A stretch of DNA of 32,000 nucleotides from Candidatus Saganbacteria bacterium (lineage in GTDB: Bacteria > Margulisbacteria > WOR-1 > JAKLHX01), in assembly GCA_026387835.1 (NCBI GenBank), contig JAPLKZ010000007.1, positions 65,284 through 97,283 of the forward strand. Reading direction: 5' to 3'. The notes under the pieces were generated by a model that saw nothing but the letters and a program-made list of their open reading frames with translations, searched no databases and had not been told where the DNA came from. Below are positions 1-25,428 of this stretch, piece after piece; positions within the stretch are counted from its first letter, which is position 1; each line of letters begins with the position of its first letter. Made by a program: the position numbers and the translations under genes.

Positions 1-315
1 GCAGGCCTGTCAGATACTTTTATTGGCGGAGTATCCTCGGCAATCACGGAGATCGGTTTTCTTAAAAAGAAATATTATATCTATGAGCCGGAGGAAAATG
101 GCAATGATTTCTCAATTGAAAGTGCGCCAAACATGTTCCAAAAACTTAACATCGCAAGAACAATCGATGAATTAAGCGATAATCTTACCTCCGGCAGGCA
201 GGCGCTGGCCGCAGAGGGAGAATACTTCTTCGGGTTGAAGACAAACAACAAGCAGGAATATGAAGAGAAAGTCAAGTCTGCTTTTGCAAGGTGGACCGGT
301 GGAAATGAGCAATAA
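1..315 (+). CDS. 3' end of an uncharacterised transferase-like protein (5' end outside the window), paralogous to the next gene
   Basis: Frame 1 is open from nt 1 to TAA 313-315. The ORF track only shows the last 60 aa, from an internal Met. The tail SDTFIGGVSSAITEIGFLKKKYYIY aligns with EADIVIGGVTTVILDAILAGKFAIIC near the C-terminus of the following ORF. Confidence 0.6.
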   Translation, partial: AGLSDTFIGGVSSAITEIGFLKKKYYIYEPEENGNDFSIESAPNMFQKLNIARTIDELSDNLTSGRQALAAEGEYFFGLKTNNKQEYEEKVKSAFARWTGGNEQ

Positions 316-2263
316 GAATATTAGCAACAAAAAACTGATCGTTCTTGGCAGAACTGCAAGCGAAGGCGACTGCAGGCGTATAGTTGCCGGTTGCGATGAT
401 GCGCTTATTTGCGACTTTTCGGAATATTATCAGATAAACCGTGACGAACTTTTAAAGCGCGCCAAAGAGGGCCTGCATATCGAACTTTCGGCAATATTTC
501 ACAAAGTGCAGGAGGATATGAGAGATAAATATCTTGACTTTATTGCTGATTGGCCCAATAAAGTATTATGGCGCGGGAAGGATTTTAAAGAGCTTTTTGC
601 CTGGAAGGGAATAAGCCTTTGGTGGTTCAGCGAGCCGGCGAGGAAGGTTATCGGGGAATACGGAGAATATTCAAAGATCTGCGAGATATTCACAATAAGA
701 GATATTATTAGTTCGTGCGGTATTGATAGCGTTCAATTAATTTCGTGCCCAAAAGCCTTTCGCCCCACGCTAAAGAAGATCTTTCCGAAAATAAGGATCT
801 CACATATTGGTCCCGCTAAGGAATGCGGACTATTAAAACATCTGCTCAGAAGAATAATAGTAATGTTTAATGCAATCCTCATAAAGTTCATTTTTAATGA
901 CAAAAGCAATAGATACGGAAAAGATAGGATCGGTATTATCTCATTCAATCTTTATAATTGGATAGAGAGCAATAAGGTGCCGGTAGACCGCCTGTACCAG
1001 GGACTTGTTGAAGACAAAAGCCTCGGGAATGTGTTTGACTGGATATTTGTCACATCCGCTAATATGGTCGATCTGATCCGCAAAAAAAAACTGAAGGATA
1101 CTTTGGGGCTTTTCAGAAGGATCAGGGACCATTATGGAAGATCATCATTAACATTCGTGGAAAACAAGATCGGTTTCAGCCAAATTGTATTACGGTTTGT
1201 CGATTGTTCCGCAATAATCAGATATTTGTTGCTGGCAAGAAAGAAAGAGTTTAGGGACAGCCTGACAATCGAAGGGGTCAACATATTTGATATTTTTCAT
1301 AATGCCTTTGTCAAATCATTTGTTGTGAATACATTTGAGTCCCAGATGTTGTCGGAATGTTTTTATCGCCTGAATAGGGACGTAAAACACGAGACATATG
1401 TAACTTATGCGGAATTCTTCCCGACCGGCAGGGCGGTGATACACGGGGTAAAGAGGGCTGATACAAAATCCAGGATAGTCTGGCATCAGCATTCTATGCA
1501 AACCAAAGGAAAGACAATGTTTATCAACAGGATCGGTGAAACAAATAAGTCCGGAAGTAAAAATTATGTGCAGTCTTTTCCGATAGCGGATAAATATCTG
1601 ATGTGGGGAAAGCAGGCAAGGTCGGTAGTCGCTCCGGGTTTTCCGGAGAGCAGGATAAAACTTATAGGGTCCTATAAGTATGTTGATAATTTCTATGCAA
1701 TTGCAAGCCATAAGGAGGAATCAAAAGGCGGTAAAAAAAAGATATTGATAGTGCCCTCAAATTACCGCAGGGACTGGCTTTTCCTGTTTAATATCATTTT
1801 TAACGCATTAAAAGATGCGGGAAATCAATATGATGTGAAGGTGACAAAACATCCGGCTGTCCAAAAAGAGATGTTCATTAACGATCTTAAGAGATTTAAA
1901 GGCGGGGTGGATGTTGTCTACAGGGACAGCACGTCAGATGCTCTTACAGAAGCGGATATAGTGATAGGAGGGGTCACTACGGTCATTCTCGACGCAATAC
2001 TGGCCGGGAAATTTGCTATTATATGTAAGAGTCCTAATGATATATACTATGGTATAGACAAGGATGATTTTCCGGAGAATTCGCAGGAGGTGGGAATAGC
2101 TTTTGTCTGCAATCATCAGGAACTGCGAAAAAGCCTGCAGGATTTTAGCAGCAGCGGAGTTGATGAGCTTATTAATAAAAGAAGAAAACTTGTTGACGAT
2201 ATTCTTGAATATCGCGGTCCGTTGGTGAAAGAAAAGTTTTGGGAAGAGGTAAGACAATACTAA
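305..2263 (+). CDS. Large uncharacterised protein with a C-terminal GT-B-like, cytidine-nucleotide-type (TagF / sialyl- / beta-Kdo-transferase-like) domain
   Basis: The track ORF is 260-2263 (667 aa). I prefer ATG 305, which has AAGGTGGA 9 nt upstream and gives the N-terminus MSNKNISNKKLIVLG; ATG 260 remains possible. Three collinear C-terminal motifs match the TagF-like gene at 14966: KILIVPSNYRRD (cf IYYIPTFRSRKE), VKVTKHP (cf LIRFHP), EADIVIGGVTTVILDAILAGK (cf KADILITDYSSICFDYLLMDK). I recognise no family for the N-terminal ~450 aa. Confidence 0.7.
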   Translation: MSNKNISNKKLIVLGRTASEGDCRRIVAGCDDALICDFSEYYQINRDELLKRAKEGLHIELSAIFHKVQEDMRDKYLDFIADWPNKVLWRGKDFKELFAWKGISLWWFSEPARKVIGEYGEYSKICEIFTIRDIISSCGIDSVQLISCPKAFRPTLKKIFPKIRISHIGPAKECGLLKHLLRRIIVMFNAILIKFIFNDKSNRYGKDRIGIISFNLYNWIESNKVPVDRLYQGLVEDKSLGNVFDWIFVTSANMVDLIRKKKLKDTLGLFRRIRDHYGRSSLTFVENKIGFSQIVLRFVDCSAIIRYLLLARKKEFRDSLTIEGVNIFDIFHNAFVKSFVVNTFESQMLSECFYRLNRDVKHETYVTYAEFFPTGRAVIHGVKRADTKSRIVWHQHSMQTKGKTMFINRIGETNKSGSKNYVQSFPIADKYLMWGKQARSVVAPGFPESRIKLIGSYKYVDNFYAIASHKEESKGGKKKILIVPSNYRRDWLFLFNIIFNALKDAGNQYDVKVTKHPAVQKEMFINDLKRFKGGVDVVYRDSTSDALTEADIVIGGVTTVILDAILAGKFAIICKSPNDIYYGIDKDDFPENSQEVGIAFVCNHQELRKSLQDFSSSGVDELINKRRKLVDDILEYRGPLVKEKFWEEVRQY

Positions 2264-2272
2264 TATATTAAC

Positions 2273-2818
2273 ATGCAACAAGAAAAAATAAGACTAAATA
2301 TAGGTTGCGGCAATGATATCAGGCCAGGTTATATCAATTGCGACAAAGTAGCAATAGAAGGGGTGGATAAAGCAGTTGATCTTGATGCTAGGCTGCCCTT
2401 TGAGGATAATAGTGTTAATGAAATAGTCCTCATCGATGTGCTTGAGCATGTTCAGGATTTTATAGGATCTATGGAAGAGCTTTGCAGGATCTTGGAAAAA
2501 AATGGGCGGCTTATTATACAGGTACCTTATTGGAATAGCTGGTGCGCCGTGGCCGATCCGACGCACAGGCGTGGTTTTCATGAAAAAGTATTCAATTTTT
2601 TTGATCCGGACAGGGAAGAATGCAGGGAAAGGCACTATTACACAAAAGCCAGGTTCAGGATTATTTCTTTAAATCCGGTTTTGTACCCGTTTTCACCATC
2701 CTTCAGATCCAAAAAAAGAGAAATAAAGAATAAATTATTGAAAAAGGCGGTGTTTTTTCTGGGCAACTATTTGAATAATATCATCATAGATCTGTCTGTG
2801 ATACTTGAAAAAGCATAA
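2273..2818 (+). CDS. Small class I SAM-dependent methyltransferase (Methyltransf_11-like)
   Basis: It has the glycine-rich motif I (IRLNIGCGND) and an acidic loop (LPFEDNSVNEIVLIDVLEHV), followed by LEKNGRLIIQVPY. The protein is 181 aa. Confidence 0.85.
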   Translation: MQQEKIRLNIGCGNDIRPGYINCDKVAIEGVDKAVDLDARLPFEDNSVNEIVLIDVLEHVQDFIGSMEELCRILEKNGRLIIQVPYWNSWCAVADPTHRRGFHEKVFNFFDPDREECRERHYYTKARFRIISLNPVLYPFSPSFRSKKREIKNKLLKKAVFFLGNYLNNIIIDLSVILEKA

Positions 2819-2828
2819 GGAGAAGAAC

Positions 2829-3590
2829 ATGGAAAATCTGAAGAAGAGGCTTGGCGAAAAAAAACTGACGGTTGGAAGCTGGATCCAAATCCCGGATACA
2901 TTTACCGCGGAAATAATGGCAAAGTCAGGATTTGATTGGCTGGCGATCGACATGGAACATGGCTTGATAGATATGAAGGACGTTTTCAGGCTGATACAGG
3001 TGATTGATCTTGCAGGGTCGGTTCCCCTTGTGCGGCTCAATGTAAATGATGCCAGCACCATTAGGCGTGTGATGGACGCGGGAGCGGCCGGAGTGATCGT
3101 TCCTATGGTCAACTCTGCTGATGATGCCCAAAAAGCGGTTGAGGCCGTAAAATATCCCCCCCAAGGCAAGAGGAGCTTCGGTTTGGGCAGGGCGCATGGT
3201 TATGGCAGGAAATTTAAGGAATATATCTCGGCGTCAAACTCACGTAGCATTCTAGTGGTCCAGATAGAGCATATAGATGCAGTAAGGAATCTGGATGAAA
3301 TTTTAGAAATAAAGGGGATTGATGCGGTGATAATCGGTCCGTATGATCTTTCCGGCTCCATGGGTATCCCGGGGAAATTTAATGACACAAAGTTTATAAA
3401 AGTAATCGGAGAGATCAGCAAAAAGGTAAAGAGCAAAAAGATCGCGCTGGGATTCCATCTTGTTCAACCAGGCGCAGGAGAGCTCAATAAAAAGATAAAA
3501 GAGGGCTTCACTTTTATCGCTTATGGAATGGATACTATATATCTGTCAAACGCCCTGTCAAACGCGGTTAATGATATAAGAAAAGGATAA
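2829..3590 (+). CDS. HpcH/HpaI-family class II (metal-dependent) pyruvate aldolase
   Basis: The sequence LTVGSWIQIPDTFTAEIMAKSGFDWLAIDMEHG...VPLVRLNVNDASTIRRVMDAGAAGVIVPMVNSADDAQKAVEAVKYPPQGKRSFG matches the 2,4-dihydroxyhept-2-enedioate / 2-keto-3-deoxy-sugar-acid aldolase family. ATG 2829 has AAGGAG 6 nt upstream. The TTG 2805 start in the track is unlikely. Confidence 0.9.
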   Translation: MENLKKRLGEKKLTVGSWIQIPDTFTAEIMAKSGFDWLAIDMEHGLIDMKDVFRLIQVIDLAGSVPLVRLNVNDASTIRRVMDAGAAGVIVPMVNSADDAQKAVEAVKYPPQGKRSFGLGRAHGYGRKFKEYISASNSRSILVVQIEHIDAVRNLDEILEIKGIDAVIIGPYDLSGSMGIPGKFNDTKFIKVIGEISKKVKSKKIALGFHLVQPGAGELNKKIKEGFTFIAYGMDTIYLSNALSNAVNDIRKG

Positions 3591-3594
3591 TAGC

Positions 3595-4581
3595 GTGAAG
3601 GAATTTGATCTGATGCGGCCGAAGGGCGCCTACGAGGAGGTGCTTCTCCAAAGAGAGAAAGACGGCTTTGCTTTTTTCTCAAAGTATAAAGACAGTTTTA
3701 TCGATATAGATTGCCCTGCCTGCGGTGAAAGGGGTGAAAAAGCTTTTGAGAAATACGGTTTTACACATAAGATCTGCGATAAATGCAAGACCCTGTTCTG
3801 TTCTCCGAGGCCGAATGACGAGCTGTTAGGTGTTTATTATAATGAATATGAAGCGCCTAAAATGTGGACCAAACTGCTTGTAAAAGCGGATGCAAGCAGA
3901 AAGGCTCTCCAGTATGCTCCGCGCGCGGAAAAAATTGTTGATCTTATGAAAAAGCGCGGAAAAAACGGCGGCCTCGCTGTTGACATAGGTGCCGGATCGG
4001 GAGCCTTTTCTATAGCACTCAAAAATACCGGTTTCTTTTCAGATGTGATAACGCTTGATTTCTCAAAGGACTGTGTGGCTGAATGCAAAAGATCAGGGTT
4101 GAATGCACGCCTTGGCACAGTAACCGATCTTTCTGATTCATCTGCCAACCTCATCTGTATGAACGATCTTTTGGAACATCTGTTTGATCCGCTCACTTTT
4201 CTGAAAAAATGCGCGAATGCGCTTCGCCCGAAGGGTGTTGTCTCGATCGCCACGCCCAACGGGCAGGGTTTTGATTTTCAGATACTTAAGGAAAAGACCG
4301 GGAATATTACACCGCCGGAACACCTCAATTATTTCAATCCGGCCTCGCTGTCTATGCTGCTTAACAGGGCCGGGTTTGAAACGATATCTGCCGAAACGCC
4401 GGGGATACTTGATGTGGACATTATTTTGAACGGAAAAAAGGTCGGCTTTCCCCTCAAGCAAAAAAATGAATATCTTGACAGCCTTATGGTACAGGACGAG
4501 AGTATACGAAAAAAATTCCAGAAGTTTTTATCGGAGAACGGCTTGTCCAGCCATATGCTGGTAATGGCAAAGAAAAAATGA
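3595..4581 (+). CDS. SAM-dependent methyltransferase with an N-terminal CxxC...CxxC zinc ribbon (paralogue 1)
   Basis: It carries the zinc ribbon CPACG...CDKCKTLFCSPRP, motif I (VDIGAGSGAF), NDLLEHLFDP and PPEHLNYFNP. It is 328 aa with a GTG start and is collinear with the ORF at 5368-6354. Confidence 0.8.
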   Translation: MKEFDLMRPKGAYEEVLLQREKDGFAFFSKYKDSFIDIDCPACGERGEKAFEKYGFTHKICDKCKTLFCSPRPNDELLGVYYNEYEAPKMWTKLLVKADASRKALQYAPRAEKIVDLMKKRGKNGGLAVDIGAGSGAFSIALKNTGFFSDVITLDFSKDCVAECKRSGLNARLGTVTDLSDSSANLICMNDLLEHLFDPLTFLKKCANALRPKGVVSIATPNGQGFDFQILKEKTGNITPPEHLNYFNPASLSMLLNRAGFETISAETPGILDVDIILNGKKVGFPLKQKNEYLDSLMVQDESIRKKFQKFLSENGLSSHMLVMAKKK

Positions 4582-4594
4582 AACTGAGATGTAA

Positions 4595-5371
4595 ATGAAT
4601 ATTATAGGAATAATTCCCGCGCGCATGGCGTCCAGCAGATTTCCCGGGAAACCACTGGCAAAGATACTTGGCATCCCGATGATCGGGCACGTGTACTTCA
4701 GGAGCAGGATGTGTAAGACGCTCAATGAAGTGTATGTGGCGACGTGCGATAAGGAAGTGTTTGAATATTGCAATTCCATTGGTGCAAAGGCTGTGATGAC
4801 CAAAGATACGCATGAGAGAGCCTCTGACCGCGCGGCCGAGGCGATGCTGAAGATAGAAAAGGAAACAGGGGAGAAGATCGATATCGTGGTGATGATACAG
4901 GGCGACGAGCCGATGCTGTATCCTGACATGATCGACGATGCTGTGAAGCCGCTCATAGACGACAAGAATATCTTTGTCTCCAACCTCATGGCGCCAATGA
5001 CAAAAGAAGAGCAGGAAGATCCCAATGAGGTCAAGGTGGTATGCGATAACGATAATTTTGCACTATATTTTTCGAGGGAGCCGATCCCTTCCTGGAAAAA
5101 AGGGGCAAAAGAAGTTCCGATGTTCAAACAGGTCTGCATAATCCCTTTCAGGAGGGATTTTCTTCTGAAATTCAACGAGCTTGTGCCAACTCCTCTTGAG
5201 ATAGTGGAATCGGTGGATATGCTTAGGGTGCTGGAGCATGGTTATAAGGTAAAAATGATCAGGAATGACAGGCAGACATACAGCGTTGACACGCAACAGG
5301 ACTTAAAAGATGTCGAGGAAGCGATGCGCCCTGACAGCCTGATAAAAAAATACAAAGGGCAGGGCAAATGA
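4595..5371 (+). CDS. kdsB: KdsB-family cytidylyltransferase (CMP-3-deoxy-ulosonate synthetase-like, CTP_transf_3)
   Basis: It aligns along its whole length with E. coli KdsB as I recall that sequence: IIPARMASSRFPGKPL..ILGIPMIGHV, QGDEPML, VKVVCDNDNFALYFSREPIP, PTPLEIVESVDMLRVLEHGYKV, VDTQQDLKDVE. The substrate may not be Kdo itself. Confidence 0.88.
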   Translation: MNIIGIIPARMASSRFPGKPLAKILGIPMIGHVYFRSRMCKTLNEVYVATCDKEVFEYCNSIGAKAVMTKDTHERASDRAAEAMLKIEKETGEKIDIVVMIQGDEPMLYPDMIDDAVKPLIDDKNIFVSNLMAPMTKEEQEDPNEVKVVCDNDNFALYFSREPIPSWKKGAKEVPMFKQVCIIPFRRDFLLKFNELVPTPLEIVESVDMLRVLEHGYKVKMIRNDRQTYSVDTQQDLKDVEEAMRPDSLIKKYKGQGK

Positions 5372-6354
5372 AAGAAGAAGAGATCAGAAAGCGCGACGTA
5401 TTTAACAAGTATCTTGAGCTGGTAAAGGAAGATATCGATACGATCTTCAAAGACAAGGGCGCGTTCATAGACGCGGCTTGTCCGGCCTGCGGCTCGGACG
5501 AGAACACCTTTCAATTTGAAAAATCCGGGTTTAAATACGTGCTTTGCAATAAATGCGGCACTTTGTTCGCCAACCCGAGGCCTACGCTGAAGGCGCTCAC
5601 GGATTTCTACTCGTCTTCAAAGTCCGGGGATTTCTGGGTAAAAGAGTTCTTTCTTCCAGTGGCGGAAGTGCGCAGGGAAAAATTATTCAAACCCAGGGCA
5701 GAACTTGTCAGCGGCAGGTTACAAGAGCCGGAAGGTTTTGTCGGGGATGTCGGGGCGGGTTTCGGTATCTTTCTTGAGGAACTTGGCAAGGTCTGGAAGA
5801 AAGCAAAAATGGCGGCTATCGAGCCTTCTATAGAAATGTCGGACATATGCACTAAAAAAGGCTTTACCGTGATACGCAATGCGGTAGAGGATGTCACGGG
5901 ATGGGACGGCAAATTCTCGGTCTTAACTGCATTTGAGCTGTTTGAGCACCTGCAGGACCCGGGTTCTTTTCTTGAAAAGATACACTCTCTTCTGTCCAAA
6001 GGCGGGCACCTGCTTCTTTCGACGCTGAATGGGGAGGGTTTTGACATTCAGATACTGTGGGAGCGCTCAAAGAGCGTCTCTCCCCCGCACCATCTCAACT
6101 TTTTCAACCCCGATTCAATGCGAATATTACTTGAAAAAAAAGGGTTTGCCGTTGAATCTATAACCACTCCAGGAAAACTGGACTGGGATATTGTTGAGGG
6201 AGCTTACCGGAAAGAAGGGCAGGATCCCGGAAGATTGTGGAAGCTTTTATCTCAAAAAGGCAATGAGCAGGCAAAAGAAAAACTCCAGGAATGGATAACA
6301 AAAAATAATTTTAGCTCCCACATGATGGCGATCGCTCGCAAAGGAAATCAATGA
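5368..6354 (+). CDS. SAM-dependent methyltransferase with an N-terminal zinc ribbon (paralogue 2)
   Basis: It carries CPACG...[34 protein letters not shown] and [10 protein letters not shown], with the C-terminal tail [10 protein letters not shown] (cf SSHMLVMAKK in paralogue 1). It is 328 aa and overlaps the upstream gene by ATGA. Confidence 0.8.
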
Positions 6355-6938
6355 AGATTATTTTTCAAATGTTTATTGAAGAGATCCTTGATGTTGTGCG
6401 TTTGTTGCTGCGCAATTATCCCGGCAGGATCGGGTATAAGTTAAGGCGGGAATACTGGAAAAGAGCCTTTCTGCATTGCGGATCAAAATTCAATATTGAT
6501 ATTGAAGGCATTATTTCCGGATCAAAAAATATTATTTTGAAGGATCACGTGACATTTAGCACAAGAGTCACTATAGATGCAAATCAAGCGAAACTAACAA
6601 TCGGAAACAGATTTAGTTGCAGCAATAATGTGTTTATGGGTGCTACTGGAGGAGAGATGATCATAGGAAATGATGTAATGATCGGCCCAAATGTGGTTCT
6701 GCGGGCATCAAATCATGTTTTTAACAGGACAGATATTCCCATGAGAGATCAGGGGCATTCGTTCGGCAAAATAATTATCGAGGACGATGTTTGGATAGGA
6801 GCCAACGCGGTCATTTTGCCGAATGTGACGATTGGTAAAGGTGCTATCATCGCGGCCGGCGCCGTAGTGACGAAGGATGTACCCCCGTATAGTATCGTTG
6901 CAGGTGTGCCGGCAAAAACGATAAAGAGCAGAAAATGA
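6351..6938 (+). CDS. Hexapeptide-repeat (left-handed beta-helix) sugar O-acetyltransferase, WcaF/LacA/NodL-like
   Basis: The sequence [20 protein letters not shown]...[49 protein letters not shown] shows the hexapeptide repeats. It overlaps the upstream gene by ATGA. Confidence 0.9.
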
Positions 6939-7864
6939 AAGTATTTATATCAACAACAACTTTCGCGGAGTATGAAGATCAGCCGCTTAAAATGTTAAAG
7001 GACCACGGTATGGAATTCCAGGTGAATCCGCTGCGCAAGAAGCTCTCTGGTGAAGAGCTGATATCTCTTGCTAAGGACGCGCAGGGTCTTATAGCGGGTA
7101 CTGAAGTCCTGACAGCGGAAGTGCTGAAGGAATTAAAAAGCTTAAAAGTGATCTCCCGCTGCGGTGCGGGACTTGATAATGTGGATCTAAAAGCCGCCAA
7201 AGGCCTCAATATCATGGTCTTTAATACGCCTGACGCGCCGACAGATGCAGTTGCTGAATTGACGCTGGGTCTCATGCTCGATTGCCTGCGCAAGATATCA
7301 GGAGCTGACAGGCAGATCAGGCATGGCAAATGGAATAAACCGATGGGAAATCTTTTAAAAGGCAAAAATGTCGGGATCATCGGATATGGAAGGATAGGAA
7401 AAGCGGTTGGACGCCTGGCAGAGGCCTTTGGCGCGAATGTTTCGGCATATGATGTTGCAAAAGATCCTGACGGCAAAAAATATCTTTCTTTTGATCAGTT
7501 GATCGCCGGTTCAGACATTATAAGTCTGCATGTCCCCGGCAGTAAAACAGGCCATTTGATACATGCAAAAGCTGTTTCAAATATGAAAAACGGCGCGTTT
7601 TTGATCAATGCTTCAAGGGGCGGTCTTGTGGACGAGGAGGCTCTTTATGAGGCTTTAAAGTCGGGAAAACTGGCGGGAGCAGGCATAGACACTTTTGAAA
7701 AGGAACCGTATCAAGGAAAACTCATTGAATTGGATAATGCGGTATTGACTTCTCACATAGGATCTTACGCGAAGGAGTCCAGGATAAATATGGAACAACA
7801 AGCGGTCGAAAATCTTATTCGTGGACTTGAGGAAGCTACTGCTAACGGGAGGAGCAATAAATGA
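6935..7864 (+). CDS. D-isomer-specific 2-hydroxyacid dehydrogenase (phosphoglycerate/glycerate dehydrogenase-like, no ACT domain)
   Basis: It has the NAD motif [17 protein letters not shown] and the catalytic triad context [12 protein letters not shown]...[11 protein letters not shown]...LTSHIG. Confidence 0.9.
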
Positions 7865-8853
7865 TGACTGAAAAAGAATGTTATCAATTGTTCAAGAAAT
7901 ATGCAGAAAATTATAAGCCTTTTCAGTTTGATACTGCTAGAAATGATTTTCGTGCTGAATACAAAGGTAAAAATAATCTAATCATTTCGTTCTATAGATA
8001 TTTCAAAGTATTTTATGAGGTCTCTAAAATATGGGGGAAAAACAAATCAAAAGTCGTTGATTTTGGGGTTTTCCCCGGAGTTGTTCCGAAAATATTCCGA
8101 GATCTCTTTTTGAATGATAATTTTGACTATATCGGAGTTGGATTGGGTTTTACCGATGATTTTATTAAGGAGATGGAGAAATTAAAAATAAAGTTACATG
8201 AAACTGAGTTGGACCCATCTTATTTTATGCCTAAAAAAGTCAATCAACTGGATTGTTCTGACGCAGATATAGTTCTTTTTTTGGATGTTATAGAACATCT
8301 GGCTAATCCCACCAATGCGCTTGACGTTGCCAATCACTCCCTAAAAAAAGGCGGATGGCTTATTCTGACGACTGACAATATAACTAATGCGAATAATGCG
8401 ATCCTAATGTTGCTCGGGAAAACGCCATTGCCGCATCCGTTGTTAACAAACATGTATTTCATCGGAGATTGGCGCCCCCATTTCAGAGAATATTCTAAAG
8501 AAGATTTGATGTGGCTGTTACGGAACAGCGGTTTTGAAATTGAAAAACACGAGTATTTTGACAGAAAACAAGGCGAATATTATTTAAACAATGGAAGGAT
8601 AGAAAGACAACGCCAATCTGTTGATAACAGCAAAATAGACAGAAGGCTAAAAATTAAAATCATAAGGAACATTAAAAAAGCAGTAATGGCTTTGTTGAAA
8701 ATTGCATTTTCTTTCTCCCCTCATTTCCGCTCTCATCAAATTATTGTGGCCAGAAAGGTATTTGAAACAGGGGAAATGAAAAAGAAAAGGCCGGAAATGC
8801 AAACTTCGACCGAGGGATGGAATGCTGTCAGGCAAAAATATTTGGGTTATTAA
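7861..8853 (+). CDS. Probable class I methyltransferase with a degenerate motif I
   Basis: It has VVDFGVFPG in the motif I position, then DADIVLFLDVIEHLANP, LKKGGWLILTTDN and REYSKEDLMWLLRNSGFEI. The gene is markedly AT-rich relative to its neighbours. Confidence 0.65.
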   Translation: MMTEKECYQLFKKYAENYKPFQFDTARNDFRAEYKGKNNLIISFYRYFKVFYEVSKIWGKNKSKVVDFGVFPGVVPKIFRDLFLNDNFDYIGVGLGFTDDFIKEMEKLKIKLHETELDPSYFMPKKVNQLDCSDADIVLFLDVIEHLANPTNALDVANHSLKKGGWLILTTDNITNANNAILMLLGKTPLPHPLLTNMYFIGDWRPHFREYSKEDLMWLLRNSGFEIEKHEYFDRKQGEYYLNNGRIERQRQSVDNSKIDRRLKIKIIRNIKKAVMALLKIAFSFSPHFRSHQIIVARKVFETGEMKKKRPEMQTSTEGWNAVRQKYLGY

Positions 8854-8886
8854 CCAAGAAAATTATATAGAACTGGAGGAAATAAT

Positions 8887-9753
8887 ATGAAAATCATAGT
8901 ATTCGGGGGCGCGGGTTTTTTGGGCAGCCACGTGGCGGACGCGCTGACAGAAAAAGGGCACAAAGTCACGGTATTTGACCTGATAAAGTCGCCTTATCTA
9001 AAAGAAGGCCAAAACAGCATCATAGGTGATGTCACTGATCCTGAATGCGTCAGCAAGGCGGTGGCGGGACAGGAGATCGTATATAACTTCGCGGGAATAG
9101 CGGACATGGACGCGGCAAAAATAAAACCGCTTGAAACAGTAAAGAATAACATATACGGAAACACCGTGCTTCTCGAGGCCTGCAGGAAATCAAAGGTCAA
9201 GAGGTTTGTCTTTGCCAGTACTCTTTATGTTTACAGCAAGGCGGGTTCTTTTTACAGGAGCAGCAAGCAGGCGAACGAGCTTTTGATAGAGAACTACCAC
9301 GATATCTATGGCCTCGATTTTACGATACTGAGATACGGATCGCTATACGGGCCAAGAGCGGATGAAAACAACTGGATACACAGGGTGGTAAATCAGGCGC
9401 TGAAAGAAAATAAGATCACCAGGCACGGCGACGGTGAGGAACTGCGCGAGTACATCCACGTGCTGGATGCTGCCAGGCTGAGCGCGGACATACTGTCAGA
9501 TGATTACAATAACCAGTACGTGATAATAGCCGGCCACCAGCAGATGAAGATAAAAGACCTTATGGTGATGATAAGGGAAATACTGAATAACAAGATAAAG
9601 CTCGAATACCTACCCGTCGATTCAACCGAGCACTACGAAATCACTCCGTATGTCTTCAGCCCGAAGATAGCAAAACGTATACAGAGCAATAATTATATTG
9701 ATCTGGGTCAGGGGATACTTGATCTCATCACAAGGATATATGCCGCAAAATGA
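8887..9753 (+). CDS. NAD-dependent epimerase/dehydratase-family SDR (nucleotide-sugar epimerase or ketoreductase)
   Basis: It has MKIIVFGGAGFLGSHVADAL (GxxGxxG) and the YxxxK motif in YRSSKQANE. A GGAGG RBS lies 7 nt upstream. Confidence 0.85.
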   Translation: MKIIVFGGAGFLGSHVADALTEKGHKVTVFDLIKSPYLKEGQNSIIGDVTDPECVSKAVAGQEIVYNFAGIADMDAAKIKPLETVKNNIYGNTVLLEACRKSKVKRFVFASTLYVYSKAGSFYRSSKQANELLIENYHDIYGLDFTILRYGSLYGPRADENNWIHRVVNQALKENKITRHGDGEELREYIHVLDAARLSADILSDDYNNQYVIIAGHQQMKIKDLMVMIREILNNKIKLEYLPVDSTEHYEITPYVFSPKIAKRIQSNNYIDLGQGILDLITRIYAAK

Positions 9754-10397
9754 CAAGAACCAAGGCCATAATATTTGATTTTGACGGGGTGATCGTTGAA
9801 TCAATGGATATAAAAGCCGATGGATTCGCTTTTCTATTTAAGGATTATCCTGATAAGACAGATAAGATCGTTAGATTTCACCTTGACCATGGGGGGATGG
9901 GGAGGATGGAAAAGTTCGAACGGATATATAGAGATTTCCTGGGTCAAAATATTACAGAAACAGAAAAGGTGATCTTAAGCAAAAAACTCACAGAATTCGC
10001 ATATGAAAAAGTCGTGAAATGTCCGTTTGTCGCAGGGGCGAAGGAATTTCTTGAAAAACACAAAGATGACTTTCTCATGTTTGTCGTGTCCGGAACACCC
10101 GATAGTGAGATTAAGAAAATTGCAGGAAAAAGGAAACTTTCCGGATATTTCAAGGAAGTGCTGGGATCACCCAAGAAAAAGACCGAGCTTAACGGGTATA
10201 TTCTTAAAAAATATGATCTAAAGCCTGAGGAAACTGTTTTTATCGGGGATTCGATCGACGATTATATCGGGGTAAAAGACCTGGGGATAAGGTTTATAGG
10301 TAGGATCGACAAAGAAGATCCGTTCAAGGGTCTTGAGATCGAAAGCAGGATAAAAGATCTTTCTGAACTTGAAAGCATGGTGGGTAAAAATGTATAG
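9750..10397 (+). CDS. HAD-superfamily phosphatase (subfamily IA, phosphoglycolate-phosphatase/beta-PGM-like)
   Basis: It has motif I (IIFDFDGVIVES), motif II (VVSGTP) and motif IV (FIGDSIDD). It overlaps the upstream gene by ATGA. Confidence 0.85.
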   Translation: MTRTKAIIFDFDGVIVESMDIKADGFAFLFKDYPDKTDKIVRFHLDHGGMGRMEKFERIYRDFLGQNITETEKVILSKKLTEFAYEKVVKCPFVAGAKEFLEKHKDDFLMFVVSGTPDSEIKKIAGKRKLSGYFKEVLGSPKKKTELNGYILKKYDLKPEETVFIGDSIDDYIGVKDLGIRFIGRIDKEDPFKGLEIESRIKDLSELESMVGKNV

Positions 10398-11043
10398 ATT
10401 GCTGTCGTATCCTTTAAATGAAAAGACCCCCATGTATGGCGATACAAGGCCTGTAATGATCGAGCCATGCAAGCAGATCAGCAGGGGTGATGATTGTGAT
10501 ACGGCTTACGTTACTTTTTCAAACCACAGCGGAACACACATCGATGCCCCAAAGCATTTCCATGCCAAGGGCAGGTCTTTAAGCCAGTTTGGTGCAGAGG
10601 AATTTATTTTTGAAAGACCGCGCATGATGGATTGTCCGAAAAATGAAGACAAACTGGTCATGCCGGATGACATAAAGGACTCGGCCGGCTGTGACCTGCT
10701 GCTGATAAGGACCGGATTTTTTAAATTCAGGGGAAGCGAAAAATATCGGTTGAACAATCCGGGAATTTCAGCAGATGCAGCCCTGTGGATCAGGGAAAAA
10801 TGTCCCGGTATCCGCGCCGTCGGTATCGATACGATATCGATAACTGCTTTTCAAAAAAGGCCGGAAGGAAAGCGAGCGCACCATACTTTCCTTGATCCTG
10901 ATGCAAAAACCGGCAAACCTGTGCTCCTGATAGAAGATATGGATTTGAGCGGCGATCTTGCCGGCCTTAAAAAGGTATTCACGGTACCACTTTATTTTGA
11001 AGGTGTTGACAGCATGCCGTGCACGGTCATAGGGGAATTTTGA
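10390..11043 (+). CDS. Cyclase-family protein (kynurenine-formamidase-like metal hydrolase, PF04199-type)
   Basis: It has the signature FSNHSGTHIDAPKHF (HxGTHxDxPxH). ATG 10390 follows GGTGGG by 5 nt. The TTG 10369 start in the track is less likely. Confidence 0.8.
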   Translation: MYRLLSYPLNEKTPMYGDTRPVMIEPCKQISRGDDCDTAYVTFSNHSGTHIDAPKHFHAKGRSLSQFGAEEFIFERPRMMDCPKNEDKLVMPDDIKDSAGCDLLLIRTGFFKFRGSEKYRLNNPGISADAALWIREKCPGIRAVGIDTISITAFQKRPEGKRAHHTFLDPDAKTGKPVLLIEDMDLSGDLAGLKKVFTVPLYFEGVDSMPCTVIGEF

Positions 11044-11131: not shown

Positions 11132-12262
11132 ATGAACAAACCTTACGGAGGAAAACTGATCGACAGATACGACCTCCCGGTGAAAACCCCGGCATATGAT
11201 CATGAGGTCACTGTGTCTGATGTTGTGGTGTCTGACCTGTATAATATCGCGGACGGTGTTTTCAGCCCGCTTGAAGGGTTTATGACGGCTAAAGAATTTA
11301 ACAGTGTAGTAATGAAGGGTGTTTTTCGCGATCTTCCATGGACGATACCAATACTTATTGATGTTGACAAGGCGGAAGCCATTGCGGCAGGAAGATCAAA
11401 ACTGGTAGGAATTCGAAATAAAGAAGGCAAACTATTTGCGTCAGTTGAGGTCGAGGATGTCTATGCGCACAATAAAGAACTTCATGCAGAAAAAGTCTTC
11501 GGAACAAATGACAAAAAACACCCCGGGGTAAACTTTGTCCATAACATGAAAGAGTACCTGATCGGCGGAAAGATACTTGTCCACAAGAGGGCCCGACATT
11601 TTGGCAGTTATATGTCTCCGAGACAGACGAGAACGATGTTCGAAAAACTCGATCTTAAAACCATTGCGGGTTTTCAGACAAGAAATGTACTTCACAGAGC
11701 CCACGAATATCTCCAGAGATGCGCTCTGGAGCTGGTGGACGGCCTTTTTCTTCAGCCGATAGTAGGGTGGAAAAAACCGGGCGATTTTACCGCGGAAGCC
11801 GTAATAAAAGCCTACAGAGAATTCATAAAAGATTATTATCCGAGAAAGCGCATCGTTCTTGGCACTTTAAAGACAGCAATGCGCTATGCCGGACCTAAAG
11901 AAGCTGTGTTTCACGCGATCATAAGAAAAAACTTCGGCTGTACCCATTTTATCGTCGGCCGGGATCACGCGGGTGTTGGAGGGTACTACGGCAAATACGA
12001 GGCGCACGATATATTCGACAGGATAAGGGATCTTGGGATCACAATCTTGAGGTTCAAAGAGCCTCTTTACTGCAGTAAATGTGACCTTATAGTCACAGAA
12101 AAGACCTGCGGCCATAATAAAAAATATCACCAGGAAATAAGCGGGACTCTCGTAAGAAGCATCATCAAGAAGGGGGATCAGCCGAAGCACAAGATCTTCA
12201 GGCCTGAGGTTTACGACGTCCTGGTAAGAGAATTTAAGGCGCATCACCTTTTTTATGAATAG
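11132..12262 (+). CDS. sat: Sulfate adenylyltransferase (ATP sulfurylase, homo-oligomeric Sat type)
   Basis: It has GFQTRNVLHRAHEYLQ and HFIVGRDHAGVGGYYGKYEAHDIF, plus a PUA-like N-terminal domain. It is 376 aa. Confidence 0.92.
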   Translation: MNKPYGGKLIDRYDLPVKTPAYDHEVTVSDVVVSDLYNIADGVFSPLEGFMTAKEFNSVVMKGVFRDLPWTIPILIDVDKAEAIAAGRSKLVGIRNKEGKLFASVEVEDVYAHNKELHAEKVFGTNDKKHPGVNFVHNMKEYLIGGKILVHKRARHFGSYMSPRQTRTMFEKLDLKTIAGFQTRNVLHRAHEYLQRCALELVDGLFLQPIVGWKKPGDFTAEAVIKAYREFIKDYYPRKRIVLGTLKTAMRYAGPKEAVFHAIIRKNFGCTHFIVGRDHAGVGGYYGKYEAHDIFDRIRDLGITILRFKEPLYCSKCDLIVTEKTCGHNKKYHQEISGTLVRSIIKKGDQPKHKIFRPEVYDVLVREFKAHHLFYE

Positions 12263-12271
12263 GAGCAAATA

Positions 12272-13696: not shown

Positions 13697-13700
13697 TCTC

Positions 13701-21082: not shown

Positions 21083-21971
21083 TTGTGTTGCATTAATGTA
21101 TCACAGGATCAGGCCCCGACTTCCTGGAGGCAGGATATATCCTAATGACGTTATAACAGTTTATGTAGATGAGTTTGATAAGCAGGTAGCATTCCTCAAA
21201 AAGAATTTTAGTGTATTATCAAAAAATGAATTTGTGGAATGTGTTGAGAAAGGCCTCATTTTTCCAAAAAAATCAGTATTAATTACATTCGATGACGGGC
21301 AGACGGATATTTATGAGTTTGCATATCCGATCTTGAAGAAACACAATGTTCCTGCAATAGTATTTCTCCCGACAGATTTTATAGGCACAAACAAGGTGAT
21401 TTGGTGGGATGAATTAGAGTCATATTTAATGGGTTCTTCCATTTCCGGTAATGAAATAGCGCTTCAAATGGCTAAAATGCAAGAAGAGGAAAGAAGGAAA
21501 TGGCTAGATAAAATAAAACTGCAGTATAAAACAGGCGATTTAATATTAAATAGATCTGCATTGACGTGGCAAGAAATAAAGGAGATGACCGATCTTATAT
21601 CATTTCAACCGCACACAAAAAACCACGTACGACTTTCAAATGTTTTGCAAGAGGAAGCGAGAAATGAAATATTAGGATCAAAGCAAGCGATCGAAGAAAA
21701 TCTTGGAATTGTTGCTGATGTATTTGCTTATCCCTATGGCGGAATATCAGATTATAACGAAACTCATGAACTTATTCTTACGAATAATGGTTTTAAGCTG
21801 TCATTTTCAACCTCCGAATGGCATATAAATAAAAGAAGCAGAGTTTTTGCTTTGCCAAGAGTAGCCGTTAACTCCTCAGATAATCTTTTTTTGTTTAGAA
21901 TAAAACTGTCGTGGCTCCCGGTTTTGTTAAAAAGGGCCATAAGGAAGATATATAATAAGTGCAAAAAATAA
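21057..21971 (+). CDS. Polysaccharide deacetylase (NodB homology domain, CE4)
   Basis: It has VLITFDDGQTDIYEFAYPILKKHNVPAIVFLPTDFIG and FQPHTKNH. ATG 21057 follows GGAGG; the track start is 21045. Confidence 0.85.
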   Translation: MNKAFMPNNCVALMYHRIRPRLPGGRIYPNDVITVYVDEFDKQVAFLKKNFSVLSKNEFVECVEKGLIFPKKSVLITFDDGQTDIYEFAYPILKKHNVPAIVFLPTDFIGTNKVIWWDELESYLMGSSISGNEIALQMAKMQEEERRKWLDKIKLQYKTGDLILNRSALTWQEIKEMTDLISFQPHTKNHVRLSNVLQEEARNEILGSKQAIEENLGIVADVFAYPYGGISDYNETHELILTNNGFKLSFSTSEWHINKRSRVFALPRVAVNSSDNLFLFRIKLSWLPVLLKRAIRKIYNKCKK

Positions 21972-25424: not shown

Positions 25425-25428
25425 GCAA

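Follow-up and report, generated by a model that had tools for sequence, protein, structure and literature searches.

A conserved gene cassette pairing a class II aldolase with a KdsB-like transferase suggests a PEP-independent route to a CMP-activated ulosonic-type acid

Organization of the gene run

What makes the acid that a KdsB-family CMP-transferase activates, when the gene beside it encodes a pyruvate aldolase? The question is raised by a 32,000-nt stretch of DNA (the window: positions 65,284-97,283 of the forward strand of contig JAPLKZ010000007.1, assembly GCA_026387835.1) from a Candidatus Saganbacteria bacterium (GTDB lineage Bacteria; Margulisbacteria; WOR-1; JAKLHX01). Domain scans of its 32 kb detected neither a DAHP_synth_1 nor a NeuB domain, in agreement with an earlier sequence-only reading, which had recognised no KdsA or NeuB gene there. 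All 30 plus-strand ORFs of the window were scanned with Pfam and NCBIfam models, and every gene named in that reading was confirmed. The densely packed plus-strand gene run at 2273-11043 and the gene preceding it are as follows:

305..2263, plus strand, TagF-like protein, 652 aa (TagF-like C-terminal region)
2273..2818, plus strand, short SAM-dependent methyltransferase, 181 aa (Methyltransf_11, 3.7e-8)
2829..3590, plus strand, class II HpcH/HpaI pyruvate aldolase (PF03328, 1e-34)
3595..4581, plus strand, Methyltransf_23 methyltransferase, 328 aa (PF13489, 9.5e-18)
4595..5371, plus strand, KdsB-family CMP-transferase (CTP_transf_3 PF02348, 7e-48; PRK13368, 313 bits)
5368..6354, plus strand, second Methyltransf_23 methyltransferase, 328 aa (PF13489, 1.2e-21)
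6351..6938, plus strand, hexapeptide-repeat acyltransferase (Hexapep, 1.3e-16)
6935..7864, plus strand, D-isomer-specific 2-hydroxyacid dehydrogenase (2-Hacid_dh PF02826, 4e-54)
7861..8853, plus strand, third large methyltransferase, 330 aa (PF13489, 3e-12)
8887..9753, plus strand, extended SDR of the nucleotide-sugar 4-epimerase type, 288 aa (PF01370, 4e-43)
9750..10397, plus strand, HAD-IA phosphatase (HAD_2, 1.8e-15)
10390..11043, plus strand, Cyclase-family metal-dependent hydrolase-fold protein (PF04199, 3e-25)

The run thus holds four SAM methyltransferases according to the domain scans, and its last gene, unnamed in the earlier reading, belongs to the Cyclase family. The run had been described as ATGA-coupled, which holds for several junctions only: 4-bp overlaps of this kind link the KdsB-like gene, the 5368-6354 methyltransferase, the hexapeptide transferase, the dehydrogenase and the 7861-8853 methyltransferase in a chain, and also the SDR and HAD genes. 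The 3595-4581 methyltransferase gene is separated by 4 nt from the aldolase gene and by 13 nt from the KdsB-like gene, and the HAD and cyclase genes overlap by 8 bp.

Linkage of the aldolase to a cytidylyltransferase

With the aldolase as seed, a genome scan yielded at least 596 relatives, and the best 80 loci, from more than 15 phyla, were analysed. One of two partner cytidylyltransferases is present in 76 of these 80 loci, namely the KdsB-like subfamily in 53 and a single coherent NeuA-like group in 23. In 64 of 75 loci a CTP_transf_3 gene lies at most two genes away from the aldolase, and every locus that extends 8 kb or more to each side of the aldolase has a cytidylyltransferase (42/42). 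Members of the NeuA-like partner group adjoin the aldolase in 19 of 23 cases and never co-occur with the KdsB-like gene (0/23); the remaining NeuA-like genes are confined to loci that also carry a KdsB-like gene. The reverse search, a metagenome scan seeded with the KdsB-like protein, provided 80 loci, and the aldolase was present in 33 of the 38 that extend at least 2 kb upstream. A search for a fusion of aldolase and cytidylyltransferase found none, which counts against the pathway proposed below. The comparison of neighbourhoods that the earlier reading had proposed therefore shows a recurrent linkage, and since the pair recurs in 76/80 genome loci and reciprocally in 33/38 metagenome loci, it is not a product of chance.

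The carriers among the best 80 loci include archaea (Methanoregula, Methanoperedens, Hadarchaeia, and Woesearchaeota) as well as Patescibacteria, Saccharibacteria, Dehalococcoidia, Planctomycetes, Omnitrophota, and Syntrophomonas wolfei. Carriers of the cassette among the archaea, CPR bacteria, Firmicutes, and Dehalococcoidia are expected to be without LPS.

PEP-dependent synthases near the cassette

In all, 41.7 kb of the contig were read, including 9.7 kb ahead of the window. Six genes upstream, about 4 kb before window position 1, stands a PseI equivalog (501 bits), accompanied by PseG, a GNAT, and WbqC. The sequence-only reading had named, as evidence that would tell against it, a canonical synthase adjacent to the window and co-varying with the KdsB-like gene. 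The first half of this was found, since a PseI-type NeuB does lie just outside the window; the co-variation is absent. NeuB occurs in 17 and is missing from 25 of the 42 well-flanked loci, it is found near only 1 of the 23 loci of the NeuA-like partner group, and in the metagenome loci seeded with the KdsB-like protein it appears in 3 of 80. A probe for KdsA, which scored 517 bits with the KdsA equivalog model as validation, had no match in 174 related loci amounting to 1.92 Mb. The linkage of aldolase and transferase is thus conserved in both search directions and does not depend on NeuB or KdsA.

Within the 41.7 kb read, no further CTP_transf_3 gene turned up. A syntenic contig from Omnitrophota carries, for its upstream PseI pathway, a separate CTP_transf_3 gene encoding a PseF-like protein of 235 aa. 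As only 9.7 kb could be read upstream of the window, it is from this synteny that we infer a separate PseF serving the neighbouring PseI.

Residue patterns of the aldolase and the CMP-transferase

The aldolase gene starts at the ATG at 2829 and not at the TTG at 2805, in accordance with the public gene call. The NCBIfam models for HpaI, RhmA, and GarL give its product 150-190 bits, in each case short of the equivalog cut-off, and the closest solved structure is YfaU (2VWS, 9e-44). Relatives sharing 45-73% identity are spread over more than 15 phyla. H44, R69, E147, and D173, invariant in an alignment of 30 relatives, align with the catalytic residues H45, R70, E149, and D175 of HpaI. We propose that 2829-3590 encodes a class II metal-dependent pyruvate aldolase that would form the C-C bond in the cassette's pathway.

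The product of 4595-5371 scores 313 bits with PRK13368, the NCBIfam KdsB subfamily model (cut-off 255), and is about 40% identical, as read from the alignment, to the E. coli K-CKS structure 1GQ9. The subfamily retains the catalytic residues R10, R15, K19, Q98, D100, R157, R213, and D235. In contrast, H181, Y185, E210, and Q211, invariant in all five solved KdsB sequences aligned, are replaced in the aldolase-linked members: H181Q and Q211M in 54/54, E210D in 53/54, and Y185I in 45/54, with M in 4 more. One of these four positions, Y185, has a documented contact with Kdo: in the E. coli enzyme it forms hydrogen bonds, together with Q98, to the C5 hydroxyl, and 5-deoxy-Kdo is not a substrate (PMC12199768). 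Because these four residues are changed and the catalytic ones are kept, we propose that 4595-5371 encodes a KdsB-family transferase with an altered sugar pocket, rather than an ordinary KdsB, and that this would be the activating enzyme.

Other genes of the cassette

The D-2-hydroxyacid dehydrogenase, found in 58 of the best 80 loci, is a core member of the cassette. Among solved structures the P. horikoshii PGDH comes closest to it (1WWK, 3e-58), and it matches TIGR01327 at 4e-72. Each of the catalytic residues Arg, Asp, Glu, and His is retained by 51-53 of 53 members. The HAD phosphatase is present in about 30 loci, and in variant B an IMPase or a DHQS-like phospholyase occurs instead. The SDR, with a tblastn match in 45 of the best 80 loci and a member of the same ORF cluster in 31, and the cyclase-fold protein, in about 24 loci, belong to the accessory set of variant A. 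The nearest solved entries to the SDR (6DNT, 4ZRM, and 6WJ9) are titled NAD-dependent epimerase/dehydratase or UDP-glucose 4-epimerase; the nucleotide-sugar 4-epimerases that it resembles are not known to act on CMP-sugars, a point against the pathway proposed below. Kynurenine formamidases are weak relatives of the cyclase-fold protein.

In about 28 loci, a methyltransferase of the 3595-4581 cluster adjoins the aldolase or KdsB-like gene; in others its place is taken by FkbM or by methyltransferases of clusters c31, c42, and c53. Counterparts of the 2273-2818 and 7861-8853 methyltransferases were not recovered in the best 80 loci, and both are accessory, as is the hexapeptide transferase (12 to 16 of the 80), which is probably an O-acetyltransferase. 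Regarding the roles that the sequence-only reading had assigned, the dehydrogenase and a phosphatase are borne out as conserved; decoration by methyltransferases agrees with their frequency, but an acetyltransferase is only occasional, and the co-operonic pyruvate kinase has to be dropped, with weak matches in 2/80 loci, outside the conserved set.

Pfam gave no match for the 305-2263 protein. The NCBIfam model TIGR04326 ('surface carbohydrate biosynthesis protein', 2.5e-15) and a BFO_1060 glycosyltransferase domain (1e-7) match it below cut-off, and other loci have comparable large, unannotated proteins bordering the cassette. It might tentatively be considered a candidate transferase for the CMP-activated acid.

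Proposed pathway and alternatives

As judged from the scans and alignments, the domain identities are firm and the catalytic residues of aldolase, transferase, and dehydrogenase are intact. On balance, gene association and residue patterns make it probable that the cassette encodes a route to a new CMP-activated ulosonic-type acid that depends on the aldolase and not on PEP. The class II aldolase would build the carbon skeleton from an aldehyde or phospho-aldehyde and pyruvate, with hydroxypyruvate as a possible substitute for the latter; the HAD phosphatase would strip the phosphate from the precursor or the adduct, as KdsC does in the Kdo pathway; and the KdsB-like enzyme would then use CTP to attach CMP as an ester at the anomeric C2 hydroxyl. 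Preparing or tailoring the aldehyde partner or the product may fall to the dehydrogenase, the 4-epimerase-like SDR, and the cyclase-fold protein, O-methyl, methyl-ester, or O-acetyl groups may come from the methyltransferases and the hexapeptide transferase, and the TagF-like or another unannotated large protein (e.g., 305-2263) may transfer the activated acid to a glycan. The view that the transferase acts on what the aldolase makes is a deduction, as are the order of steps and all substrate identities. The earlier idea that the aldolase replaces a KdsA/NeuB-type synthase and feeds the KdsB-family enzyme is thus supported by comparative genomics, through the reciprocal linkage and the changed residues, and its chemistry is a prediction. 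We found no published description of such a cassette in the open-access literature. Against this pathway, a simple Kdo-like scheme offers no obvious place for the dehydrogenase; if this enzyme reduced the 2-keto group of the adduct, CMP activation at the anomeric centre would be impossible.

The dehydrogenase would find a place if, with the phosphatase, it converted 3-phosphoglycerate to hydroxypyruvate for the aldolase, whose product would then be CMP-activated. Hydroxypyruvate could act as the nucleophile, leading to a 3-hydroxy (Ko-like, non-deoxy) 2-ulosonic acid, or it could tautomerise to tartronate semialdehyde and react as electrophile towards pyruvate, leading to a 2-keto-3-deoxy-hexaric (ulosaric) acid. 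The nearest relatives of the dehydrogenase are indeed phosphoglycerate dehydrogenases, and most loci pair the aldolase with a dehydrogenase and a HAD, IMPase, or DHQS-like phospholyase. The aldolase is also close to the hydroxyketoacid aldolase 6R62, which presumably uses hydroxypyruvate as donor, and to the 2-dehydro-3-deoxy-galactarate/glucarate aldolases 1DXE and 4TV5, which cleave to tartronate semialdehyde; speculatively, the cyclase-fold or an FAA_hydrolase-fold protein could be the tautomerase. However, the equivalent of PHGDH R54 (E. coli SerA R60), presumably a phosphate ligand, is missing from 51 of 53 dehydrogenases when aligned with a human reference sequence, and the only ring that a hexaric acid could close is a furanose, which no known KdsB substrate resembles. 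The present data do not tell pyruvate from hydroxypyruvate as donor, and we consider this version unlikely.

It is also quite improbable that aldolase, dehydrogenase, phosphatase, and methyltransferase make a 3-deoxy-aldonic acid (from pyruvate and glyceraldehyde or its 3-phosphate, by 2-keto reduction and then 2-O-methylation) serving as the N-acyl group of a PseI/NeuB nonulosonic acid, with the cytidylyltransferase activating the decorated nonulosonic acid and not the aldolase product. Such a scheme gives the dehydrogenase a clear job and fits the Pse pathway directly upstream on the contig. Furthermore, the flagellin of Treponema denticola carries a nonulosonic acid with a 2-methoxy-4,5,6-trihydroxy-hexanoyl group, a group (PMC13439194) whose skeleton is what aldol addition followed by 2-keto reduction and O-methylation should give. 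Nevertheless, the conserved set has neither a carboxylate-activating enzyme (ATP-grasp or adenylate-forming) nor a dedicated N-acyltransferase, NeuB is absent from most well-flanked loci and from 22/23 of those with the NeuA-like partner, Pse/Leg pathways, where present, bring their own NeuA/PseF-like gene besides the KdsB-like one, and the top 120 aldolase matches include no Treponema protein.

Finally, a normal CMP-Kdo synthetase, or a CMP-Pse synthetase for the neighbouring PseI, next to an unrelated or catabolic aldolase would suit the score above the KdsB cut-off, the PseI upstream, and the single CTP_transf_3 gene seen on the contig, but it is very hard to reconcile with the four residues replaced throughout the subfamily, the failure to find KdsA, the carriers expected to be LPS-free, an aldolase linkage far tighter than that of NeuB, and the PseF-like gene of the Omnitrophota locus.

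Glycan context of the cassette

The genomic setting of the cassette is glycan biosynthesis. In Methanococcoides sp. AM1 it shares a locus with AglB/STT3, which it precedes by about 2 kb; in Ferdinandcohnia sp. it lies within a Wzy/Bac_transf polysaccharide cluster, and in a Spirochaetia MAG alongside ABC-2 transporter and GT2 genes. In some loci, MptE-like/DUF115 proteins, whose fold is that of the Maf nonulosonic-acid transferases, are encoded next to the aldolase. The product of the proposed aldolase-dependent route probably serves surface glycans.

Gene organization of the cassette

The cassette lies on the plus strand, as does every sizeable ORF of the window. The Pfam and NCBIfam scans of 30 plus-strand ORFs yielded the gene order listed below, in which the start of the aldolase gene has been corrected to the ATG at 2829 and the last gene of the run to the one encoding the cyclase-fold protein.

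Table. Genes of the cassette and the gene that precedes it (window positions)
305-2263, plus strand: 652-aa protein with weak TIGR04326 and BFO_1060 matches
2273-2818, plus strand: small methyltransferase
2829-3590, plus strand: HpcH/HpaI aldolase
3595-4581, plus strand: methyltransferase (Methyltransf_23)
4595-5371, plus strand: KdsB-like cytidylyltransferase (CTP_transf_3; NCBIfam KdsB subfamily PRK13368, 313 bits)
5368-6354, plus strand: methyltransferase (Methyltransf_23)
6351-6938, plus strand: hexapeptide transferase
6935-7864, plus strand: D-2-hydroxyacid dehydrogenase
7861-8853, plus strand: methyltransferase
8887-9753, plus strand: extended SDR
9750-10397, plus strand: HAD phosphatase
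10390-11043, plus strand: cyclase-family protein (PF04199)

The junctions are close-packed, with five 4-bp ATGA overlaps, one 8-bp overlap and remaining gaps of 4-33 nt. The domain scans confirmed what the sequence-only reading had proposed, i.e., that the aldolase and the KdsB homologue belong to one tight run and that the 32 kb contain no KdsA- or NeuB-like ORF: neither a DAHP_synth_1 (KdsA) nor a NeuB domain was found in the window, and hence none in 2273-11043. The same reading had described the aldolase as ATGA-coupled with the KdsB homologue, and this detail was incorrect. A promoter and terminator scan of the window gave counts close to the shuffle expectation and was uninformative on the operon limits.

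Past an 88-nt gap at the 3' side of the cassette, and within the glycan operon, there are genes for an ATP sulfurylase, a full-length pyruvate kinase and a CPA2-type Na+/H+ exchanger-family transporter (11132-14969), followed by a TagF-type CDP-glycerol glycerophosphotransferase homologue (14924-16177; this observation also concerns 305-2263) and further glycan genes. No TagD-type glycerol-3-phosphate cytidylyltransferase was found in the window, whose sole cytidylyltransferase is the KdsB-like gene. An ATP sulfurylase-like ORF is also found near the aldolase in two other loci (L024, from Patescibacteria, and L033), and these genes may be a pointer to glycan sulfation; the domain scans revealed no APS kinase domain in the window. 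Further downstream, a 347-aa ORF (21959-23002), whose similarity to the DegT/DnrJ aminotransferase profile is confined to positions 50-204, may encode a divergent or truncated PLP enzyme; its neighbours on the two sides are genes for a polysaccharide deacetylase and a FemAB-like Acetyltransf_6 protein. An 87-aa ORF (26880-27143) is probably a gene fragment, because it matches no more of a GT1 glycosyltransferase than the C-terminal end. Directly 5' of it lies a B12-binding radical SAM gene (25414-26883), and such genes are also seen next to the cassette in many related loci. The window has positive GC skew in each 1-kb bin and all of its genes on one strand, which fits a long leading-strand glycan super-operon.

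The aldolase defines a subfamily of its own

The aldolase, which has a 100% identical counterpart in a Candidatus Saganbacteria MAG, matches the PF03328 TIM-barrel domain over its full length (1e-34; profile positions 5-220 of 221). Residues H44, R69, E147 and D173 are invariant among 30 relatives and align with H45, R70, E149 and D175 of HpaI, which we take from the structural literature on HpaI to be the catalytic His/Arg pair and the Glu/Asp metal ligands, respectively. It scores below all the equivalog cut-offs (HpaI, 188 vs 369 bits; RhmA, 171 vs 441; GarL, 154 vs 393). By these criteria, the protein is a class II member of the HpcH/HpaI family that falls outside the HpaI, RhmA and GarL equivalogs.

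Close relatives sharing 50-73% identity are abundant. A genome scan seeded with the alignment of 30 close relatives, using one genome per GTDB species, provided at least 596 confirmed relatives, and the best 80 of these loci were analyzed. These 80 span more than 15 phyla and include archaea (Methanoregula, Methanoperedens, Hadarchaeia, Woesearchaeota and Micrarchaeota) as well as CPR bacteria, Dehalococcoidia, Planctomycetes, Omnitrophota, Desulfobacterota and the cultured Syntrophomonas wolfei.

The KdsB-like cytidylyltransferase has replaced residues that are invariant in solved KdsBs

The KdsB-like protein matches PF02348 (7e-48) and can be aligned over its whole length with five solved KdsB sequences. 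Across the 54 aldolase-linked members, the residues for nucleotide and metal (R10, R15, K19, Q98, D100, R157, R213 and D235; E. coli KdsB numbering) are kept; the window protein has the CTP-/Mg-binding R10, R15, K19, Q98, D100 and D235, as do 53-54 of the 54 relatives. Four positions that are invariant in the five solved sequences (H181, Y185, E210 and Q211) are changed in the aldolase-linked members: H181Q in 54/54, Y185I in 45/54 (M in 4), E210D in 53/54 and Q211M in 54/54, the window protein having Q, I, D and M, respectively. Going by the structural literature on KdsB, we take H181, E210 and Q211 to be part of the Kdo pocket as well. With these four replacements, the subfamily is a coherent variant whose residues at the changed positions are more hydrophobic, and it is unlikely to use ordinary Kdo. 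The C5 hydroxyl of Kdo is bound by Y185 and Q98 in the E. coli enzyme, for which 5-deoxy-Kdo is not a substrate (PMC12199768); H181 is mentioned there only as a titratable residue in modelling.

The protein scores above the NCBIfam cut-offs, both for the subfamily NF009905 (313 bits, cut-off 255) and for the TIGR00466 kdsB equivalog (159.5 bits, cut-off 155.2), and therefore automatic and public annotation will call it KdsB. By curated score it passes as a member of the equivalog, but by its residues it does not. Public databases probably label the archaeal, CPR and Gram-positive relatives as CMP-Kdo synthetase too, the window protein being the one that was scored. A search of 1.84 billion proteins with the KdsB-like query retrieved no fusion with the aldolase; among the few longer matches, the Pfam additions were only PRD, HAD (KdsC-like) or CTP_transf_like domains.

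The aldolase is linked to one of two cytidylyltransferases

ORFs were called in all loci and clustered, and the window proteins were mapped by tblastn, resulting in the following occurrences.

Table. Occurrence of genes in the 80 aldolase loci
2-hydroxyacid dehydrogenase: 58/80
KdsB-like cytidylyltransferase: 53/80
SDR: 45/80 (31 in the same ORF cluster)
HAD: ~30/80
cyclase-fold protein: ~24/80
NeuB: ~20/80
ATP sulfurylase: 2-3/80
pyruvate kinase: 2/80, weak
TagF-like: 1/80

A CTP_transf_3 gene lies at most two genes from the aldolase in 64/75 loci. When only the loci with at least 8 kb on both sides are considered, this gene is present in 42 of 42 and NeuB in 17 (absent in 25). In the loci that have no KdsB-like gene, a NeuA/PseF-like gene is found directly upstream of the aldolase. 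Clustering of 35 NeuA-like proteins grouped 23 of them together; these never occur together with a KdsB-like gene, are adjacent to the aldolase in 19/23 cases and have NeuB nearby in 1/23. The remaining 12 are found only in loci that also contain a KdsB-like gene, often beside NeuB. Therefore, the aldolase has two mutually exclusive partner cytidylyltransferases, which jointly account for 76/80 loci. One of these partner subfamilies is NeuA/PseF-like and scores 168 bits with TIGR03584, below the cut-off. In the reverse scan of metagenome contigs, seeded with the KdsB-like subfamily, 38 loci extended at least 2 kb upstream, of which 33 contained the aldolase; NeuB was found in 3/80.

This neighbourhood comparison, which the sequence-only reading had suggested as a check, strengthened the core of its proposal, i.e., that an aldolase feeds a CMP-transferase. 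Its further suggestion that a co-operonic pyruvate kinase supplies pyruvate has been dropped, since that gene gives only weak matches in two loci. Pyruvate kinase, ATP sulfurylase and the TagF-like transferase were ruled out as cassette members, each being found in at most 1-3 of 80 loci.

An E. coli KdsA probe (validated with 517 bits against the KdsA equivalog) gave no match in 174 loci totalling 1.92 Mb. Carriers of the cassette include archaea, CPR bacteria, Firmicutes and Dehalococcoidia, all of them groups expected to lack LPS. Judged by KdsA in the loci compared and by these host groups, the KdsB-like genes do not have the genomic setting of a CMP-Kdo synthetase, for which KdsA, KdsC, KdsD and WaaA in an LPS-bearing host would be expected.

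A pseudaminic acid-type module lies upstream of the window

The 9.7 kb of the contig upstream of the window encode, from the far end towards the window, an Aminotran_3 protein, PseG (equivalog match, 315 bits), a methyltransferase, a radical SAM/SPASM protein, a GNAT protein, WbqC, PseI (equivalog match, 501 bits), a FemAB-like protein, a flippase and a 568-aa protein. The pseudaminic acid-type module, from PseG to PseI, extends from 245 to 5653 of the contig read upstream (L007), i.e., window -9451 to -4043. The sequence-only reading had considered that an adjacent KdsA/NeuB-type synthase co-varying with the KdsB homologue would speak against an aldolase route. Since PseI is located ~4 kb outside the window, a NeuB-type synthase is truly adjacent; its assignment is, nevertheless, to a separate module. 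The same arrangement is found in an Omnitrophota MAG, with a full Pse-type set upstream that includes its own 235-aa CTP_transf_3 gene; the syntenic contig (L174) adds PseB-like, PseC-like, HisF/HisH-like and PseF-like genes. Here, the PseI pathway is one unit and the aldolase module another, with one cytidylyltransferase each, and by synteny the contig of the window would also carry a separate PseI-pathway unit with its own cytidylyltransferase.

Genomic settings of the cassette in other organisms

In Methanococcoides sp. AM1, the order of the genes is CTP_transf_3, 425-aa protein, HpcH, 2-Hacid_dh, SDR, Cyclase and HAD, and the same locus has AglB/STT3 ~2 kb further downstream. A Wzy/Bac_transf polysaccharide cluster surrounds the cassette in Ferdinandcohnia sp., and the cassette of a Spirochaetia MAG is accompanied by GT2 genes and an ABC-2 transporter. 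MptE-like/DUF115 proteins, which presumably have the fold of the Maf nonulosonic acid transferases, adjoin the aldolase in several loci. All these settings are those of glycan assembly. In several loci, Methanococcoides included, the gene between those of the NeuA-like cytidylyltransferase and the aldolase encodes a protein of ~425 aa with no Pfam match (ORF cluster c25), which is a candidate for the dedicated transferase of the activated acid. Its positions in three loci are:
L054, 8721-10001
L176, 8721-9998
L083, 8734-10005

The dehydrogenase and the variant gene sets

The core common to the variant gene sets consists of the aldolase, the cytidylyltransferase, the dehydrogenase and a phosphate-removing enzyme. 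The window-type set (variant A) adds the SDR, the HAD protein and the cyclase-fold protein. The nearest solved entries of the SDR are titled NAD-dependent epimerase/dehydratase or UDP-glucose 4-epimerase, and the cyclase-fold protein is only a distant relative of kynurenine formamidases. Variant B replaces this set, in L027, L036, L037, L040, L042, L057, L076, L081 and other loci, by a Gfo/Idh/MocA oxidoreductase and a GmhA-like SIS isomerase, together with an IMPase or, alternatively, a FabG-like SDR and a DHQS-like enzyme. The latter is an AroB-related cyclizing phospholyase (TIGR04425, 439 bits), and its location beside an aldolase predicted to form a 3-deoxy-ulosonate suggests a carbocyclic or otherwise unusual product. 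In Ferdinandcohnia the accessory gene encodes a FAA_hydrolase-fold protein.

The best relatives of the dehydrogenase are short phosphoglycerate dehydrogenases, and its catalytic Arg, Asp, Glu and His are kept in 51-53 of 53 members. As to the two residues that we take to be the cationic phosphate-binding residues of PHGDH, the equivalent of R54 is absent in 51/53 and that of R135 is K/R in 47/53.

Proposed pathway and alternatives

The cassette probably encodes an aldolase-based route to a CMP-activated 2-keto sugar acid, which is the best-supported reading. The computational support for a conserved module is good, while the chemistry is a proposal. The aldolase would join pyruvate, or hydroxypyruvate, to an aldehyde, providing the skeleton of a 2-keto acid sugar; the phosphatase would take off the phosphate, and the dedicated cytidylyltransferase would form the CMP ester. 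Methyl and acetyl groups would be added as decorations, and a linked transferase would consume the CMP donor. In variant B, the SIS isomerase, aldolase, phosphatase and KdsB-like protein would correspond one by one to KdsD, KdsA, KdsC and KdsB. That the aldolase product feeds the transferase is an inference, as is the identity of every substrate.

This cassette resembles the Kdo and nonulosonic acid pathways at the activation and transfer end, but differs from them in the C-C bond-forming enzyme, the residues of the transferase, the dehydrogenase and the host range. As in the Kdo pathway, a 2-keto sugar acid would be built, a HAD-type phosphatase would act, and activation by a KdsB-family enzyme would follow, the SIS-domain sugar-phosphate isomerase of variant B taking the place of KdsD. 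The Kdo pathway, however, relies on the PEP-dependent KdsA (DAHP_synth_1), which gave no match in any of the 174 loci, whereas in the cassette a class II metal-dependent HpcH aldolase, expected to use pyruvate as donor, would make the C-C bond. The four replaced residues of its transferase include Y185, the ligand of the Kdo C5 hydroxyl, and the universal 2-hydroxyacid dehydrogenase belongs to the cassette only. Kdo is a component of Gram-negative LPS and capsules, while the cassette occurs in archaea and other organisms expected to have no LPS. With the nonulosonic acid pathways it shares its location in glycan loci, a CTP_transf_3 cytidylyltransferase at the end of the route, one NeuA/PseF-like partner subfamily and the frequent vicinity of Maf/DUF115-like or TagF-like transferases. 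Nevertheless, it has no NeuB-type PEP-dependent synthase, and steps by a UDP/GDP-sugar dehydratase, an aminotransferase and an N-acetyltransferase are missing from its core; where Pse/Leg genes are adjacent, they form a separate module with its own cytidylyltransferase. The aldolase has the fold, His/Arg pair and Glu/Asp metal ligands of the catabolic HpaI, RhmA/YfaU and GarL (~35-40% identity, as read off the alignments), but it is encoded in glycan loci instead of aromatic or sugar-acid catabolic ones and forms its own cytidylyltransferase-linked subfamily, 45-73% identical across domains of life.

The main weakness of the aldolase-to-CMP-ester route is the universal 2-hydroxyacid dehydrogenase, which has no necessary role in it. 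If this enzyme reduced C2 of the adduct, CMP activation at the anomeric centre would be impossible, and this has motivated two alternatives. According to the first, the dehydrogenase and the phosphatase provide hydroxypyruvate or tartronate semialdehyde, leading to a Ko-like or ulosaric acid; it gives the dehydrogenase a function, and we regard it as unlikely. The second, which we judge slightly less likely still, proposes that the aldolase, the dehydrogenase and a methyltransferase produce a 3-deoxy-2-O-methyl-aldonic acid that is attached as an acyl decoration. Such a skeleton is reported in PMC13439194, a 2-methoxy-4,5,6-trihydroxy-hexanoyl group, on the flagellin nonulosonic acid of Treponema denticola. 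This substituent (3-deoxy-2-O-methyl-hexonoyl) corresponds to a pyruvate aldol addition followed by 2-keto reduction and O-methylation, activities that are all encoded in the cassette, and we found no other natural glycan component with this skeleton in the open-access literature. As an N-acyl side chain, however, it differs from a CMP-activated glycosyl donor. An acid-activating enzyme is missing from the conserved set, NeuB is missing from most loci and the Pse/Leg modules, where present, have separate cytidylyltransferases of their own, all of which argue against this alternative. No description of the genes for the T. denticola substituent was found in the open-access literature, and Treponema did not appear among the best 120 matches of a search seeded with the Spirochaetia aldolase.

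The sequence-only reading knew of no characterised pathway with the logic of the aldolase-to-CMP-ester route and, in agreement with it, we found no description of the aldolase-cytidylyltransferase pairing in full-text open-access literature, flagellin-island papers included. According to a 2026 preprint, ulosonic acids have been observed to date exclusively as CMP-activated compounds, and bacteria contain undescribed CMP-linked keto acids, so this chemical space is known to be incompletely mapped.

Biological significance

CMP-activated keto-acid sugars cap surface glycans that are relevant to immunity, phage recognition and envelope integrity. To our knowledge, all characterised routes to them (Kdo, sialic, pseudaminic and legionaminic acids) proceed through a PEP-dependent synthase. 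In its widest form, a proposal for and against which we see the case as evenly balanced, the cassette would represent a third way to activated keto-acid sugars, after the KdsA and NeuB families, which would be widespread and PEP-independent. A dedicated class II aldolase subfamily, together with either of the two dedicated CMP-transferase subfamilies, would produce an undescribed, often O-methylated ulosonic or ulosaric acid on surface glycans of archaea (including AglB-dependent N-glycans), CPR bacteria, Gram-positives and many uncultured phyla, and the variant cassettes (GFO, SIS, FabG-like, DHQS-like) would produce further relatives. The existence of cultured carriers makes the idea directly testable, and glycoengineers would gain a PEP-free enzymatic route to activated ulosonic acids. 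The orphan "KdsB" genes of archaea and other presumably LPS-less organisms would also be explained, flagging a systematic mis-annotation. Counted as aldolase relatives, the system would concern at least ~600 species-level genomes of both prokaryotic domains, in which a pyruvate aldolase in place of the synthase would be a new biosynthetic logic and, probably, the origin of a new family of acidic sugars too.
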